Positions 2,775-26,436 of a stretch of DNA of 64,000 nucleotides are shown piece after piece. Source of the DNA: a virus (lineage: Duplodnaviria > Heunggongvirae > Uroviricota > Caudoviricetes); IMG/VR virus record IMGVR_UViG_2585427754_000004. One strand, 5' to 3'. The number at the start of each line of letters is the position of its first letter. The first letter of the stretch is position 1. The notes under the pieces were generated by a model. That model did no database searches, had not been told where the DNA came from, and worked only from the letters and a program-made list of their open reading frames with translations. Both the position numbers and the translations under genes were made by a program.

Positions 2775-2910
2775 ACCACAAACAGCCAGCGTGTTGTTCT
2801 GCGATGGGGCTGAGCCTATCTATATCAGCAATAATGATGTAATGACTGAAGAAACCGAACGCCAAATCCTTTTTCACAATACGATGGGAGAGAGGGTTTG
2901 TGGTTGGTGA
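2695..2910 (+). CDS. Outer-membrane lipoprotein spanin (Rz1-like), start embedded in the Rz-like gene
   Basis: Signal peptide with lipobox (MISGC), short mature region with Cys residues, +1-frame overlap with 2523..2774. Confidence 0.5.
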   Translation: MRRAVKYVRKMLLPFIVSCMISGCVIKPQTASVLFCDGAEPIYISNNDVMTEETERQILFHNTMGERVCGW

Positions 2911-2942
2911 TGTCGAAGTTCCCCTCAAATGAGGGGAACACA

Positions 2943-3464
2943 TTATTCGTCGAACAATTTTTCGATAGATTTTGTAGGATAGAACAAAGAACGCTCGTTG
3001 TTACCAACCAGCTGGATAAAGCCTAAACTTTTATAAAACGCCTTGGCTTTGTCATTTAACGCCTCAACGAAAAGTCCATGAATGCCTACAGCAAGAGATG
3101 CATTGTACACAACGCGCATTGCATGTGTTACAAGCATTGAGCCAAATCCTTGACCTTGAAGGGACTTGTCCAAAGCCAGCCTACCCAAAGTAACACTTGG
3201 AACATTCCGATAAGGAACCTTCTTTTGTTTGCTTCTTGAAGGTAAGGACTCCTTTTCAAAACAACTACCTGACAAAGTGTAATATCCTAACACTTTTGGC
3301 CTTTCTTCTTGAGTGCAAAGCACATAAGCACGAAGAATTTTTCCCTCATGCTGCCTTTTTAAGTGGTTGGCTAAAAAGGCGTTTAGTGACTCTTCGCCGC
3401 AATCAAAACCGTTTAGATCATAATCTTTCTCTCCAGAGAAAATCTCTATCGTTGTATTGCTCAC
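2943..3464 (-). CDS. GNAT-family acetyltransferase toxin (TacT/KacT-like) of a type II toxin-antitoxin pair
   Basis: 173 aa with acetyl-CoA-binding signature QGQGFGSMLV; 7 bp downstream of a DUF1778-type antitoxin gene on the same strand. Confidence 0.75.
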   Translation of the reverse strand: MSNTTIEIFSGEKDYDLNGFDCGEESLNAFLANHLKRQHEGKILRAYVLCTQEERPKVLGYYTLSGSCFEKESLPSRSKQKKVPYRNVPSVTLGRLALDKSLQGQGFGSMLVTHAMRVVYNASLAVGIHGLFVEALNDKAKAFYKSLGFIQLVGNNERSLFYPTKSIEKLFDE

Positions 3465-3471
3465 GAGTAAA

Positions 3472-3741
3472 CTACTCCATGCTTTTCAGACGATCAGCAG
3501 CTCGTTTCAGCTTGTCGTTCGGTGCCGGAGGATTGCTTATAGCGTCCATAACCAGATTCCAGGATTCTTCATTCAGAACTAGTCTACGGTGTTGCTCTAT
3601 AACTTTCACGGCACGTTCAGATGCACTGCTAACCATAAACTGAGTAATGCTCTGGTTAGACATTGCGGCAGCTTCCTCGATGATGCTTTTATCGTCATCG
3701 GTTAATCTCAAATCGATGCGCTGCTTTTTTAGTGCTGACAT
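3472..3741 (-). CDS. DUF1778 ribbon-helix-helix antitoxin (TacA/KacA-like)
   Basis: Translation MSALKKQRIDLRLTDDDKSIIEEAA ... NPPAPNDKL is typical of DUF1778 antitoxins. ATG at 3741 (minus strand) preceded by AGGAGG; ORF track extends to 3780. Confidence 0.7.
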   Translation of the reverse strand: MSALKKQRIDLRLTDDDKSIIEEAAAMSNQSITQFMVSSASERAVKVIEQHRRLVLNEESWNLVMDAISNPPAPNDKLKRAADRLKSME

Positions 3742-3752
3742 GTATTCCTCCT

Positions 3753-3779
3753 GATGGCCGTGATGTAGGAAGGCCATCA
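3753..3779. promoter_or_regulatory. Inverted repeat TGATGGCC-N11-GGCCATCA upstream of the antitoxin gene (candidate autoregulatory operator)
   Basis: Perfect 8-bp arms immediately 5' of the antitoxin ribosome-binding site. Confidence 0.35.
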
Positions 3780-4059
3780 ATCTCCTCTGTTCAAACTGAG
3801 TTTTCGACTCAAAAATTACTTTAAAAGGCTATAGCCCATTACGTGTGCATTATCAAATTGTGTACGGCATATCACCGTACTTGTAATATAGATGTCATTG
3901 TTACTTTTTTCAACAGACAAATACAAGCTATGTTTGCCAATTGTTAATCACAACCTACCATTTAACCTTTACACCGCAGCCGTAGGCATTTAGGCTATAT
4001 CACATATAAGAAAACAAGTTGTTTCAGACGATAATTATATACGCAAAGGGAACTCTCCA

Positions 4060-4728
4060 ATGACCAAGATCTTTGTGGTTGGCGGCACAAAGGGCGGGCC
4101 TGGCAAATCCACCGTTGCCCAGCAAATTGCCGTTTGCCTGAAAGTCAAAAAGAAGAAGAAGGTTTATATTACCGATATAGATATTCAGCGCACGACAACG
4201 AGCTGGTGTGAAGACCGTCGACAGAACGAAGACCTTGAGCTGATTCCTTTTGCATACGTTCAGGATGACATCATTAAGCACCTAAAATCGCTTCAGGGTA
4301 GAGCTGAGTTTGTAGTGGTAGATGCTGGTGGCTTCGACTCCGAAATTCAGCGACAAGCGATGCTGATGGCTGACGTTATCATTATCCCGCTGCGTCCTAA
4401 GCGTCGTGATTTGAAATCTTTACGTGACATCGATCCTATTATCGACAATGTTCGCAATGTAAACGATAAAGTGAAGGTCCGCGCGGTCATGAACCAGTGC
4501 CCGGCTTTGCCATCACAAGTGTCTCGCATTCTGGCGGCTAAAGAGATTGTTGAGACGTTTGGAATCGAGTCTGCGCCAGTCAATCTATATAACCGCAACG
4601 TCTATGATGATGCGGAAGAGTCTGGTCGCTCTATCTTTGAAATGACCGGTAGCGAGCGCGACAAAAAGGCGGAAGCCGAGTTTGAAGAATTTGTAGATTA
4701 TCTGTTGAGTCTGGAGGAAGAAGAATAA
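4060..4728 (+). CDS. parA: ParA-family partition ATPase (small type Ib)
   Basis: Deviant Walker A GGTKGGPGKST at the N-terminus; 222 aa; followed by a small RHH protein. Confidence 0.75.
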   Translation: MTKIFVVGGTKGGPGKSTVAQQIAVCLKVKKKKKVYITDIDIQRTTTSWCEDRRQNEDLELIPFAYVQDDIIKHLKSLQGRAEFVVVDAGGFDSEIQRQAMLMADVIIIPLRPKRRDLKSLRDIDPIIDNVRNVNDKVKVRAVMNQCPALPSQVSRILAAKEIVETFGIESAPVNLYNRNVYDDAEESGRSIFEMTGSERDKKAEAEFEEFVDYLLSLEEEE

Positions 4729-5087
4729 TGTCCATGAAAATGGGTGACCTAGCAAAGCGCAAAGAGCCTGATGCACCGGCTAAGAACACAACTCCTTTGC
4801 GCCAACCAGTCAGACCACAGGGACGCCCGACTCGTGGCAAAGAGAAAATTAAAAGCCGCACAATGTCACTGGAGGACGAATACTTCGAACTGCTGGAGAT
4901 GATGAAGTTCATCCCTCGCTTCGAGAAATTCACCCGTTCAGACGTGATTCGCGCAGCCATTTTCCATCTGGCAGAGAAGTCACCGCAGGAAATCGAGGAC
5001 ATCGTGAAACTTAACGAGGCGATCACAGCTGCCGATGTCACGATGCGTACCGATGAAATCAAACGAGAGTTGATGAAAAAAGGTTAA
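4728..5087 (+). CDS. Ribbon-helix-helix partition protein (ParG/ParB-like centromere-binding candidate)
   Basis: 119 aa with basic N-terminal tail and C-terminal RHH-like segment (TRSDVIRAAIFHLAE); start overlaps the parA stop. Confidence 0.45.
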   Translation: MSMKMGDLAKRKEPDAPAKNTTPLRQPVRPQGRPTRGKEKIKSRTMSLEDEYFELLEMMKFIPRFEKFTRSDVIRAAIFHLAEKSPQEIEDIVKLNEAITAADVTMRTDEIKRELMKKG

Positions 5088-5139: not shown

Positions 5140-5907
5140 TTATGCCGCGCTAACACTATGTTCAGTCCTAACCACCCCAACCTTCACAAAAGGGCTACCG
5201 TAGCTTGGTGGTTTCTTGATTAATTTGCCTACATACAGTTTTCTAATATGCTCATCGGCTATTCTGCCAACAAATTCATAACGTTTTGTGTCGGGGCCAA
5301 GAGCTATATCCCTTGTAAAGTACTGCTGAGAACCGGCTTTGACCCAGCATTCAATCCGATAAACTTCCATTATCAGCCCACCATATGTAGCGTAGGCATA
5401 TTTGAGATTCTCGTCTCTTGGAACCTTTGCCCATACGCCACGCGTAGCTTCATATAATGCCAGAGCGGACATTCCTGACTTGTAGGTGCTGTTTAGCAGG
5501 AAGGCAAGACCGGCGTGCTCAGGAGCAATTTCAGTTTCCTCTTGCAGCACTAAGTGATGGTAGGCGTCCAGTGATATTCTGCCCATCATGGAACCACTTC
5601 CTCGTACCTTATTCGTAAGCTCTCCGACCCCCATAAGGTCGATGCATGTCGCCTCAACAAGTTTGGCTGTGGTTTCATCCATACCATGACGAAGTATATC
5701 TATGCCTAATTTTTTATTAGCCAAAAGTTCTTTGATCCGCATGGATTTGGGAGAGTCATCGGGATACTTGATGTGATCGAGACAACGAGTCGATTTGCCT
5801 TTTCCTATGTAAAACGGTCTTTTCATCTTGTCTTCTGTATCATAGAGACAGTAAACATAGTATTTAGCCTTATCCAATGATCTCGCGTATACCGATAAAT
5901 CGTCCAT
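5140..5907 (-). CDS. GIY-YIG domain protein (homing-endonuclease-like or other nuclease)
   Basis: N-terminus YYVYCLYD ... PFYIGKGK ... R ... H matches the GIY-YIG fold. Opposite orientation to its neighbours. Confidence 0.45.
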   Translation of the reverse strand: MDDLSVYARSLDKAKYYVYCLYDTEDKMKRPFYIGKGKSTRCLDHIKYPDDSPKSMRIKELLANKKLGIDILRHGMDETTAKLVEATCIDLMGVGELTNKVRGSGSMMGRISLDAYHHLVLQEETEIAPEHAGLAFLLNSTYKSGMSALALYEATRGVWAKVPRDENLKYAYATYGGLIMEVYRIECWVKAGSQQYFTRDIALGPDTKRYEFVGRIADEHIRKLYVGKLIKKPPSYGSPFVKVGVVRTEHSVSAA

Positions 5908-13875: not shown

Positions 13876-13950
13876 GATGGTGTAGCTCAGCGGTAGAGCA
13901 GTTGGCTGTTAACCAACTGGTCGGTGGTTCGAATCCACCCACCATCGCCA
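13876..13950 (+). tRNA. tRNA-Asn (anticodon GTT)
   Basis: Cloverleaf folded by hand: acceptor GATGGTG/CACCATC, anticodon loop CTGTTAA, T-arm GGTGGTTCGAATCCACC, discriminator G then CCA. Confidence 0.85.
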
Positions 13951-13955
13951 ATTTA

Positions 13956-14042
13956 GGGGAGTTAGTCCGTAGGGGCAGCGGGGTAGACTGTAAATCTACT
14001 GTCATTGCGACTCGGGTGGTTCGACTCCATCACTCCCCACCA
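13956..14042 (+). tRNA. tRNA-Tyr (anticodon GTA), type II with long variable arm
   Basis: Acceptor GGGGAGT/ACTCCCC, anticodon stem-loop GTAGA-CTGTAAA-TCTAC, T-arm GGTGGTTCGACTCCAT, CCA encoded. Confidence 0.8.
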
Positions 14043-14046
14043 AATT

Positions 14047-14122
14047 GCCGGTTTAGCTCAGTTGGTAGAGCGTCTGCCTTGTAAGCAGGATGTCAGCGGT
14101 TCGATCCCGTTAACCGGCACCA
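14047..14122 (+). tRNA. tRNA-Thr (anticodon TGT)
   Basis: Acceptor GCCGGTT/AACCGGC, D-arm GCTC ... GAGC, anticodon loop CTTGTAA, T-loop TTCGATC, CCA encoded. Confidence 0.75.
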
Positions 14123-14442
14123 ACACAACAGGTAAGAGCATTGGGCGAATCGGCGATACTGACCCACAAGCCCGTAAATCGATAGAGTCAGACCAGTGCT
14201 CTTACCGTTGTGAGGAAGTGCAGCTCTTTGAAGCAACCAGAAGATAAGCATCTGGCTTCACAACACAACGATAAGATCATTACGGTTAATCGTCGTTCAT
14301 GTGCACAATGACTGGTCGAAAGGTAGTGATCTTACCGTTGTGATGAATGCACAGGCTGATGTGCCGCAACTACAGTAGTGCGCGCTTTGCGGGGCTTGCT
14401 ACAACCCTGTGTCGGAGTTCAGCACCGACCATCACAATAGCT

Positions 14443-14529
14443 GGAGAGTAGGGAGCATGGTGCTCAAGCGGTCTTGAAAACCGTCCCATTGCGCAAGCGA
14501 TGATGGTTCGATTCCATTACTCTCCGCCA
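14443..14529 (+). tRNA. tRNA-Ser (anticodon TGA), type II
   Basis: Acceptor GGAGAGT/ACTCTCC, anticodon loop CTTGAAA, long variable arm, T-loop TTCGATT, CCA encoded. D-arm is atypical. Confidence 0.7.
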
Positions 14530-25587: not shown

Positions 25588-26151
25588 TTATGCGCATTTC
25601 GCAATATCTTTGCGGCGTTTAATCAGTTTCTCCGCAATTTGCTCTATTTCGTTGAAATCTTTCGAGACGCTGTTTCGAAGCGCCAGATTCCATTTACTCA
25701 AAGTTCGGGCATTTTGGACAATTTGATCGCCCTCTTTAAGTCGTCCGTTATTCATGAGCCATTCAGCCACATCAGCCCAATCCCAGAGAGGAGACTGGCC
25801 TTTTATGCGTTGTACAGGGCAAGGGAAGTCGCCGCTTCCGCGCTTACCGTCTTTGAGCAACGCCACTGCCTGGCGAGACAGGTCTGTCAGTTCCGCGATA
25901 TCGCTTAAGCCCACAAGAGCCGAGTCGACGGATTCAACAATTGCACCGATACCGGCTGATTCAATATTGTCGACCGCAGATGCGATAGCTGCATCAAGTG
26001 ATTGTGCTTCGCGGTCAAATTCTACATAGACGGAGTTTCCATATGCGCAAATTAGCGCATCGTCACAGCCGTTTTGGTACAGCGCGTCTTCCAGTCCTTC
26101 CGTCTCATACGATACGCCTGAGAGCGTCAGAGTGAAGTTATAAAGCGCCAT
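25588..26151 (-). CDS. HTH-containing protein, candidate antitoxin or regulator
   Basis: Helix-turn-helix LSDIAELTDLSRQAVALL in the middle; start MALYNF with AAGGA ribosome-binding site; 60 bp downstream of a small ORF on the same strand. Confidence 0.4.
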   Translation of the reverse strand: MALYNFTLTLSGVSYETEGLEDALYQNGCDDALICAYGNSVYVEFDREAQSLDAAIASAVDNIESAGIGAIVESVDSALVGLSDIAELTDLSRQAVALLKDGKRGSGDFPCPVQRIKGQSPLWDWADVAEWLMNNGRLKEGDQIVQNARTLSKWNLALRNSVSKDFNEIEQIAEKLIKRRKDIAKCA

Positions 26152-26211
26152 AGTTTTCCTTTGAAGATAGTTGGACAGTTTCTGCAAAAGGCGGCTAATG
26201 CCGCCTTGAAA

Positions 26212-26436
26212 TCATTTACAACGATCAACCATTCGTTTGATCTGTTTGGCATGGTTTTCGGGATTACCCGGAGTCGACCATACGCTCATTTGGTGAGTTT
26301 TGTGTTCACCTTCTGGATTACCGCATCGCAGTCTGCAAAAACAATGTGCAGCACCACCAGCTGCTACCCAGATCCAGCCTTTACTTAATGCATAGTCAAT
26401 GGCTGCTTGAATATGCTTATTCGGATGTTGCTTCAT
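26212..26436 (-). CDS. Small protein, weak HicA-like toxin candidate
   Basis: 74 aa; LSKGW ... GGAAHCF loosely resembles the HicA fold; GGAGG ribosome-binding site; palindromic operator upstream. Confidence 0.3.
   Translation of the reverse strand: MKQHPNKHIQAAIDYALSKGWIWVAAGGAAHCFCRLRCGNPEGEHKTHQMSVWSTPGNPENHAKQIKRMVDRCK

Follow-up and report, generated by a model that had tools for sequence, protein, structure and literature searches.

A toxin-antitoxin (TA) gene pair beside the partition gene parA raises two questions: how the pair is controlled, and what it does for the element that carries it. The pair analyzed here lies in a 64,000-nucleotide (nt) stretch of DNA from a virus (Caudoviricetes; IMG/VR record IMGVR_UViG_2585427754_000004). 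This whole stretch is called the window, all coordinates are those of the 64-kb window, and both TA genes are on its minus strand. An earlier interpretation of the same DNA, made without database searches (the sequence-only reading), had described a TacAT/KacAT-type module of a small ribbon-helix-helix (RHH) antitoxin and a GNAT acetyltransferase toxin, with an inverted repeat at the promoter, and had suggested an addiction or an abortive-infection role. In the present analysis, positions 2908-3952 were read, with a probability of about 0.7, as a self-contained type II TA cassette of the AtaRT/KacAT clade that has its operator at 3862-3880 and a leader hairpin at 3752-3779, and that most likely serves as an addiction or competition module.

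Identity of the gene pair

Escherichia phage Cyrano (OV696614; pLF82 of strain LF82) and phage CMS-2020a share 99.3-99.6% identity with the region, and Salmonella phage SSU5 is a more distant relative. By this similarity, the window element is identified as an SSU5-like phage-plasmid, essentially Cyrano (pLF82). The pair is already known at the annotation level. It is labeled 'KacT Acetyltransferase-type toxin' and 'putative antitoxin' in the Cyrano record, and a GNAT family N-acetyltransferase with a DUF1778 or TacA-family antitoxin in RefSeq plasmid annotation, while KacT-CYRAN27 was counted among the Cyrano morons in the study of LF82 (PMC9928086). The TA family had been named correctly in the sequence-only reading, and it was already on public record.

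Matches to PDB sequences and the conservation of key residues strongly supported a TacAT/KacAT-type pair. The toxin matched AtaT of E. coli O157 (6GTS, 6AJM, and 7CHD; E value 1.4e-79) and KacT of Klebsiella pneumoniae (5ZGN and 5XUN; 3.5e-75), and the Pfam families Acetyltransf_7, Acetyltransf_1, and Acetyltransf_10 were all found above their curated cut-offs. It shares 69.4% identity with AtaT in a global alignment with zero gaps and 68% identity with KacT (tblastn). The antitoxin matched the Pfam family TacA1/DUF1778 (PF08681; E value 5.7e-26) and the PDB sequences of KacA (6.6e-42) and AtaR (1.3e-40), to which it is 79.5% and 76% identical, respectively, by global alignment. The arrangement described in the sequence-only reading was also present: the antitoxin gene comes first, the toxin gene follows after exactly 7 nt (3465-3471), and parA is the neighbor. 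One predicted promoter before the two genes and one hairpin behind them complete the layout of an operon. The weak start codon of the toxin and its long Shine-Dalgarno spacing would fit a toxin that is translated less than the antitoxin.

The acetyl-CoA-binding residues were found to be conserved in the alignment, and the call of a GNAT toxin stands. The sequence QGQGFG occupies residues 103-108 of the toxin (the Q-x-x-G-x-G acetyl-CoA loop), with G108 kept, and the catalytic Y144 is kept in the ungapped alignment to AtaT. Mutational data on AtaT assign acetyl-CoA binding to G108, where the change G108D abolishes toxicity, and catalysis to Y144, while L27, F30, H34, R37, S76, S78, K79, K81, K82, Y85, and R95 take part in tRNA or aminoacyl recognition (PMC7595197). 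These recognition residues are kept in the window toxin, as are P84, L136, and K165. The notable differences from AtaT are A26S, R40E, and N41G, and the changes R71K and K77R are conservative. Among the 11 residues at the tRNA acceptor end (F30, H34, R37, R40, R71, K77, K79, K81, K82, Y85, and R95), eight are identical and R40E is non-conservative. Among the GNAT toxins, AtaT and KacT fall into the basal clade A, which acetylates Gly-tRNA and tRNAs carrying hydrophobic or aromatic amino acids, as determined by phylogeny and liquid chromatography-mass spectrometry (PMC9177977). By analogy, the same acetylation pattern (Gly plus Trp, Tyr, Phe, and Met) would be expected for the window toxin.

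In the antitoxin, M65 and I68, two of the KacA residues shown to matter for neutralizing KacT, are kept, and two others differ (Q70N and R77K). Its C-terminal half is identical to that of AtaR at 31 of 43 positions, and likewise to that of KacA.

Predicted promoter and operator

The sequence-only reading had treated an inverted repeat just upstream of the antitoxin gene as the operator. The repeat exists, with perfect 8-nt arms, but its place is not the promoter: about 105 nt separate it from the predicted -10 element upstream, and it immediately precedes the Shine-Dalgarno sequence. A palindrome of the KacA type was identified instead at 3862-3880, overlapping the predicted transcription start. 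This palindrome has the half-sites and the 7-nt spacer of the crystallized KacAT operator (GTACGG-N7-CCGTAC). The duplex crystallized with KacA4KacT2 is 5'-AAATGTACGGTTATTAACCGTACATGA, the palindrome spans the transcription start of kacAT, and KacA reads it through R8, D10, and R12 (PMC6698736). Since these DNA-reading residues of the N-terminal RHH beta-strand are identical in the window antitoxin, 3862-3880 is predicted with high probability to be the operator, and 3913-3885 to be the promoter.

The operator motif was the sole match in the window, even with one mismatch allowed, where 0.05 matches were expected. A survey of 94 related loci (45 genomic and 49 from viral contigs) detected it upstream of ataRT in O157, of a pGF130 plasmid pair, and of a 90%-identical variant in ET220, as well as at 41 further genomic loci from many Enterobacterales genera, one of which has a 6-nt spacer. 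The motif thus precedes 44 of the 45 genomic relatives. It was also found at nearly all of the 49 close viral-contig loci, two of them with a single-base change; at one locus, a long repeat array displaces it further upstream. Natural operator variants were seen in L077 and L094 (upstream of 2501), where one base of a half-site is changed (GTACAG / CTGTAC for CCGTAC). The half-sites are otherwise invariant, and the 7-nt spacer is variable in sequence and mostly AT-rich. At most related loci a GTTGAA-17-TATAnT promoter ends 4 nt before the palindrome, and the kacAT operon of K. pneumoniae reads TATATT-AAAT-GTACGG. The layout of operator and promoter is almost invariant across the clade. With the operator moved to 3862-3880, binding of the antitoxin to 3753-3779 becomes unlikely, and an electrophoretic mobility shift assay at that site would probably be negative.

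A probable structured leader upstream of the antitoxin gene

The inverted repeat falls within the predicted leader of the operon. Its arms, TGATGGCC (3752-3759) and GGCCATCA (3772-3779), are 8 nt long and perfectly complementary across a 12-nt spacer, and the 3' arm of the hairpin ends on the first base of the antitoxin Shine-Dalgarno sequence. The repeat is unique in the window, and a match was found in 0 of 100 shuffles. Among relatives whose leader is homologous and about 142 nt long, stems were found at the homologous position as GACCGCCC/GGGTGGTC in L010, L013, and L014, where the loop of L010 is identical (TTCCTACATCAC), as GACCATTT/AAATGGTC in Morganella, and as CTGACCGTTCTT/AAGAGTGGTCAG in pGF130.

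In an alignment of nine sequences with the structure given by hand, 91% of the cells were paired, versus 30-50% when the 3' arm was slid by one to three columns. A covariance model built from this alignment was used to align 14 distinct sequences, the window included. In the resulting alignment, 93% of the cells were paired, five of the nine pairs had changed on both sides (12 cells) among these few, related sequences, and none of 500 shuffles reached the score. Because the relatives keep a hairpin at this position with unrelated or compensated stems, the element at 3752-3779 is most likely a hairpin of the leader RNA that acts as a structure in the RNA.

The position of the fold was also recurrent. 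Of 28 non-redundant leaders with a length of 45 nt or more, including ones that could not be aligned to the window leader, 23 have their most stable 40-nt local fold ending 7-20 nt ahead of the ATG, against about 5.8 expected from uniform positions. Compared with shuffled sequences, the local hairpin has a z score of -2.6 in the window and mostly of -1 to -4.6 at the individual loci. A scan of 2850-4100 against Rfam (E <= 10) returned matches at chance level (microRNA, small nucleolar RNA, and CRISPR direct repeat families; best E value 0.26), which places the leader outside the described RNA families, and a literature search for a leader stem-loop in GNAT-RHH operons found none.

These comparisons also bear on whether 3752-3779 could be a protein-binding operator through which the antitoxin or another regulator would control the operon at the DNA level. 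In favor of this, the repeat pairs perfectly over 8 bp, precedes the antitoxin gene, and is unique in the window, and RHH dimers bind inverted repeats; however, it is unlike the GTACGG half-site read by R8, D10, and R12, and its distance from the -10 element also speaks against an operator there. Relatives with the same DNA-reading residues have a wholly different stem sequence that is still self-complementary. In addition, the short-leader loci ataRT (26 nt) and kacAT (30 nt) have no such repeat or hairpin, so that the hairpin lies outside the repression apparatus of these two operons. A DNA-level operator at this site is considered very improbable. As for the function of an RNA hairpin, it can be guessed that it shields the transcript from 5'-end-dependent RNase E attack, or that it insulates the ribosome-binding site from the variable leader.

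Two other predictions for the leader were rejected or corrected. RNAalifold, applied to the raw MAFFT alignment of the nine leaders, returned the operator palindrome and a weak pairing of the loop with the Shine-Dalgarno sequence, and it missed the hairpin because the window-type sequences were one column out of register. An anti-Shine-Dalgarno pairing of the loop (CUUCCU) with AGGAGG would form a helix much weaker than the stem and was inconsistent in the relatives.

The start of the antitoxin gene was placed at ATG 3741, which fits the family; the protein begins MSALKKQRIDLRL and ends at a TAG stop (3472-3474). The open reading frame (ORF) listing gave TTG 3780 as the start of this frame (3472-3780), and ATG 3777 is annotated in Cyrano. 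Both N-terminal extensions were rejected, as the ET220 variant has one extra nucleotide in the loop, which breaks the upstream frame while it leaves the stem intact, and the L010 class has no in-frame start.

Two further palindromes were observed in the leader on the minus strand, at 3797-3809 and 3822-3841 (GAGTCGAAAACTC and GGGCTATAGCC). Relatives are self-complementary but different at similar positions (e.g., CAGGCTCGAAGCCTG and GAGCCTTTGGCTC), as compared by eye, with the MAFFT alignment out of register there. This suggests a leader of three hairpins. In cassette leaders of the Kluyvera type (L007:2317-2500, L087-L093, L098, and L099), the stretch from the operator to the hairpin adjacent to the Shine-Dalgarno sequence contains tandem repeats, the copy number of which varies. 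The repeat units are GAAAACT (variant GAAAATC) or the 14-nt CCTGAAACCTAGAA, the latter covering over 300 nt in L098. The window leader has one GAAAACT copy, which falls inside the small hairpin at 3797-3809.

A multi-allelic slot beside the partition genes

Homology with SSU5 and PhiR41_1 breaks off at 2902-2907 and sets in again at 3953, and the unit was therefore delimited as 2908-3952. In SSU5 (L003:2797-3953) and PhiR41_1 (L002:3701-4876), the slot between Rz1 and parA is occupied by a different two-gene module on the plus strand. Its genes encode a protein of 132-140 amino acids (aa; phrog_2594) followed by one of 233-258 aa (phrog_3307), both from PHROGs families of unknown function, and these proteins had zero Pfam or PADLOC matches. 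This pair of a small and a larger gene, alternating with the TA cassette, could be another addiction or defense module.

The parA region was found in 262 complete E. coli genomes, with all 263 matches on plasmids, and 152 of these genomes (about 58%) carry the cassette at a coverage of at least 80%. The cassette was also found in 145 plasmids of PLSDB, 140 of them from Escherichia. The same slot holds GNAT-RHH pairs in the same orientation in a 108.7-kb Kluyvera contig and in many SSU5-like IMG/VR contigs.

At least five allele classes of the slot were distinguished, each with its own leader. Most classes share 60-63% identity with the window in the toxin and 83-88% in the antitoxin, versus 83-92% in the flanking ParA and 87-96% in the endolysin. 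The ET220-type allele is closer, with 93% identity in the toxin and 98% in the antitoxin; when this type is included, the flanking ParA is 83-100% identical across the slot alleles. Members of this TA family thus appear to be exchanged in the slot, or to diversify there, faster than the backbone.

At the downstream end of the cassette, the 70 nt after the toxin stop codon fold with -19.4 kcal/mol, the hairpin at 2918-2939 being the main stem. Equivalent hairpins follow the toxin stop in all other cassette classes, in most cases with a U-tract behind them. The U-tract at 2918-2939 is weak, and a simple terminator scan made no call at the site. The hairpin is a probable terminator shared with the convergent Rz1 gene.

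A replacement within the cassette was observed in the SSU5-like plasmid pTIC (MF554642.1; L115:1539-2227, corresponding to window 2946-3634), where aac(6')-Ib-cr takes the place of the whole toxin gene and of the antitoxin gene past about codon 36. At 689 bp, the new segment is exactly as long as the one it replaces and begins right at the toxin stop codon, and pTIC retains the TA promoter, the operator, the leader hairpin, and the N-terminus of the RHH protein. This exchange could be a natural cassette replacement or an engineered marker.

Table 1. Features of the TA cassette and its surroundings in the window
Feature	Coordinates	Strand	Description
Accessory cassette	2908-3952	-	1,045 bp; terminator, toxin, antitoxin, leader, operator, and promoter; between the lysis genes and the parA region
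GC-rich hairpin, probable operon terminator	2918-2939	-	Perfect 10-bp arms, 2-nt gap; 3 nt past the toxin stop
GNAT toxin gene	2943-3464	-	173 aa, GTG start; AtaT/KacT clade (aminoacyl-tRNA N-acetyltransferase)
Toxin Shine-Dalgarno sequence, weak	3475-3478	-	GGAG, within the last antitoxin codons, 10 nt before GTG; read from the sequence
RHH antitoxin gene	3472-3741	-	89 aa, DUF1778/TacA1; AtaR/KacA orthologue
Antitoxin Shine-Dalgarno sequence	3747-3752	-	AGGAGG, 5 nt before ATG
Predicted 5' leader	3742-3878	-	About 137 nt; start inferred from the promoter position and from the kacAT palindrome, which spans its transcription start (PMC6698736)
Inverted repeat / leader stem-loop	3752-3779	-	Stem of 7-8 bp, pyrimidine-rich 12-nt loop UUCCUACAUCAC
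Probable operator	3862-3880	-	GTACGG-TGATATG-CCGTAC; starts 4 nt (ACAA) after the -10 element and overlaps the predicted transcription start
Sigma-70 promoter	3885-3913	-	TTGAAA (3913-3908), 17-nt spacer, TATATT (3890-3885); 10 of 12 matches
parA	4060-4728		Next gene, divergent from the TA pair

Comparison with known systems

The window pair resembles AtaR-AtaT of E. coli O157:H7 (6GTS, 6AJM, and 7CHD) in its gene order and its gap of 6-7 nt, as well as in the GTACGG/CCGTAC half-sites, the 7-nt spacer, and the promoter layout. It differs in its location and in its leader: AtaR-AtaT is encoded on the chromosome, between livJ and panM, and its leader is 26 nt long and free of a hairpin, whereas the window pair is on a phage-plasmid and has a structured leader of roughly 120 nt in this comparison. 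Additionally, the window toxin differs from AtaT by its GTG start and by A26S, R40E, and N41G in the region of the tRNA/aminoacyl pocket. KacA-KacT of K. pneumoniae (5ZGN and 5XUN) shares the -10 element TATATT followed after 4 nt by GTACGG, and its model of a hexamer on the palindrome with conditional cooperativity (PMC6698736) was adopted for the window pair. In contrast, it is chromosomal with a 30-nt leader, and with Q70N and R77K in the window antitoxin the cognate specificity may differ.

More distant likenesses were found in TacAT of Salmonella and GmvAT of the Shigella plasmid pINV, which also combine a DUF1778 antitoxin with a GNAT aminoacyl-tRNA acetyltransferase. The matches of the window toxin to the more distant GNAT toxins among PDB sequences have E values of 1e-21 to 1e-11. 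GmvAT is a plasmid-borne GNAT-RHH pair (PMC9431474), and other clades of GNAT toxins have different and narrower tRNA specificities (PMC9177977).

The classic addiction module of a phage-plasmid is Phd-Doc of P1, a type II TA system on a temperate phage that is kept as a low-copy plasmid. It differs from the window pair in its unrelated protein families, with a toxin of the Fic-fold kinase type and another antitoxin fold, and in its target, EF-Tu. Conditional cooperativity is likewise found in Phd-Doc (PMC6698736).

Proposed mechanism and biological role

By analogy with the orthologous systems, free toxin would acetylate aminoacyl-tRNAs and thereby halt translation, while the C-terminal half of the antitoxin would wrap around the toxin and block its acetyl-CoA site and its dimerization. 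A T-A2-A2-T hexamer would bind GTACGG-N7-CCGTAC at 3862-3880 and repress the promoter, and an excess of toxin would derepress it, as in the conditional cooperativity of KacAT (PMC6698736). The operon would repress itself, because transcription from the promoter at 3913-3885 would start within the palindrome. The repeat at 3752-3779 would be transcribed into the leader and fold as a stem-loop up to the Shine-Dalgarno sequence. In this mechanism, the cassette would act as a module for post-segregational killing and competition of the phage-plasmid, alongside hicAB.

Addiction, that is, post-segregational killing, is by analogy the most likely role, with a chance put somewhat above even. Several features suit it. 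In the LF82 lysogen, transcription of CYRAN_26/CYRAN_27 relative to the local background was 35-fold for the toxin and 60-fold for the antitoxin, and the copy number of Cyrano was 5.5 per cell (PMC9928086). The pair is thus expressed in the plasmid state of a replicon of about five copies, it is located beside parA, and the toxin has a weak start (GTG, preceded at 10 nt by GGAG) next to the strong start of the antitoxin.

Anti-phage defense was weighed as a second role. In such a role, abortive infection or superinfection exclusion would follow when an infection depletes or sequesters the antitoxin and the freed toxin stops translation before the invader finishes. In its favor, the accessory slot of the cassette is a variable one within a temperate element, and the lysogen expresses the pair. 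SSU5 and PhiR41_1 have other two-gene modules, of unknown function, in this slot, and toxins that target tRNA are known immune effectors in other systems. Neither TA protein, however, matched the models of PADLOC-DB v2 (E <= 0.01), which lowers this reading, and the literature searched gave no report of a GNAT-RHH pair that protects against phage. The slot alleles are unusually divergent relative to the backbone, as is frequent in conflict genes; this diversity fits competition between related, presumably incompatible phage-plasmids, and defense equally well. A defense role is considered unlikely, and the abortive-infection role suggested in the sequence-only reading remained without support.

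A third role would be that of a moron that aids stress tolerance or persistence of the host, as proposed for the chromosomal kacAT and tacAT, and that does not stabilize the phage-plasmid. Expression of KacT and TacT induces antibiotic tolerance (PMC6698736 and PMC9431474), although the tolerance phenotypes come mostly from overexpression. The pair was placed among prophage morons in the Cyrano paper (PMC9928086), and its close relatives are mostly chromosomal in many Enterobacterales. The cassette itself, in contrast, was found only on plasmids, beside parA, and in the same slot across several genera, which argues for a benefit to the element itself. A host-serving moron is therefore regarded as quite unlikely, and addiction is retained as the preferred role.

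A broader reading, which joins the leader and the slot, is offered tentatively and is given well under an even chance. In this reading, the long-leader GNAT-RHH operons of clade A would share a stem-loop adjacent to the Shine-Dalgarno sequence that sets antitoxin translation or mRNA lifetime, and the SSU5-like phage-plasmids would keep a dedicated slot beside parA for the exchange of strongly diverged TA alleles, a sign of addiction-based competition between related phage-plasmids rather than of simple stabilization. The stem-loop would be an undescribed element that is conserved in position but not in sequence.

The pair may also interact with its chromosomal relatives. The chromosomal ataRT, located between livJ and panM (L004:1477-2277 in E. 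coli O157:H7), was found in about 1,626 E. coli chromosomes, or about 30% of the complete E. coli genomes, and 71 genomes carry two copies of the TA family on different replicons. Since the operator half-sites and the DNA-reading residues are shared, mutual cross-repression between the chromosomal ataRT and the phage-plasmid copy is expected and likely. Partial cross-neutralization is conceivable from the 31 of 43 identical positions in the antitoxin C-terminal half, and the chromosomal ataRT possibly acts as an anti-addiction system.

Several points weigh against reading the cassette as an addiction or competition module with a structured leader. The element also has a par system, hicAB, and about five copies per cell, and the share of the pair in its stability may be small. 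The cassette is missing from 42% of the related E. coli phage-plasmids. The addiction role is drawn from location and analogy, and what is said of toxicity, neutralization, tRNA targets, and DNA binding is extrapolated from orthologues with 68-80% identity. In the toxin, R40E and N41G fall in a helix through which AtaT contacts tRNA, and the substrate range may differ. The transcription start is a predicted one, and a second promoter may lie inside the leader. As for the leader hairpin, the covariation was counted on few, related sequences in an alignment partly fitted to the structure, and the fold of the whole leader is no more stable than those of shuffled sequences (z = -0.3), with the local hairpin alone standing out.

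Neighboring features of the window

Additional features were observed outside the cassette. The second TA pair, hicA/hicB, is located at 25588-26436, is 99.9% identical to CYRAN_50/51, and is a further candidate for an addiction module of the element. A gene of 119 aa at 4728-5087 on the plus strand, whose ATG overlaps the parA stop codon, is labeled 'RelE/ParE putative toxin' in Cyrano (CYRAN_29). It had zero Pfam matches, and its PHROG is a family without an assigned function. Its location points to a centromere-binding partner of ParA, and the toxin label is apparently an annotation error.

Four tRNA genes (Asn-GTT, Tyr-GTA, Thr-TGT, and Ser-TGA) were found at 13876-14529 on the plus strand, of which only Asn, Thr, and Ser are annotated in the Cyrano record; Tyr-tRNA is among the reported substrates of AtaT. 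Just past the par genes, an ORF of 255 aa at 5140-5907 on the minus strand encodes a LEM-3-like GIY-YIG nuclease domain (Pfam E value 5.6e-07). This ORF is present in PhiR41_1 and ET220 and was not found in Cyrano by tblastn, where a plus-strand hypothetical gene is located. The site is another variable slot.

Significance for phage-plasmid biology

LF82, the host of Cyrano, is a Crohn's-associated strain, and the pair was named KacT and antitoxin in the Cyrano paper. Being clearly orthologous to two systems of known structure, the pair itself contributes little. What bears on the persistence of phage-plasmids and on the competition between them is the recurrent leader hairpin together with the multi-allelic TA slot.

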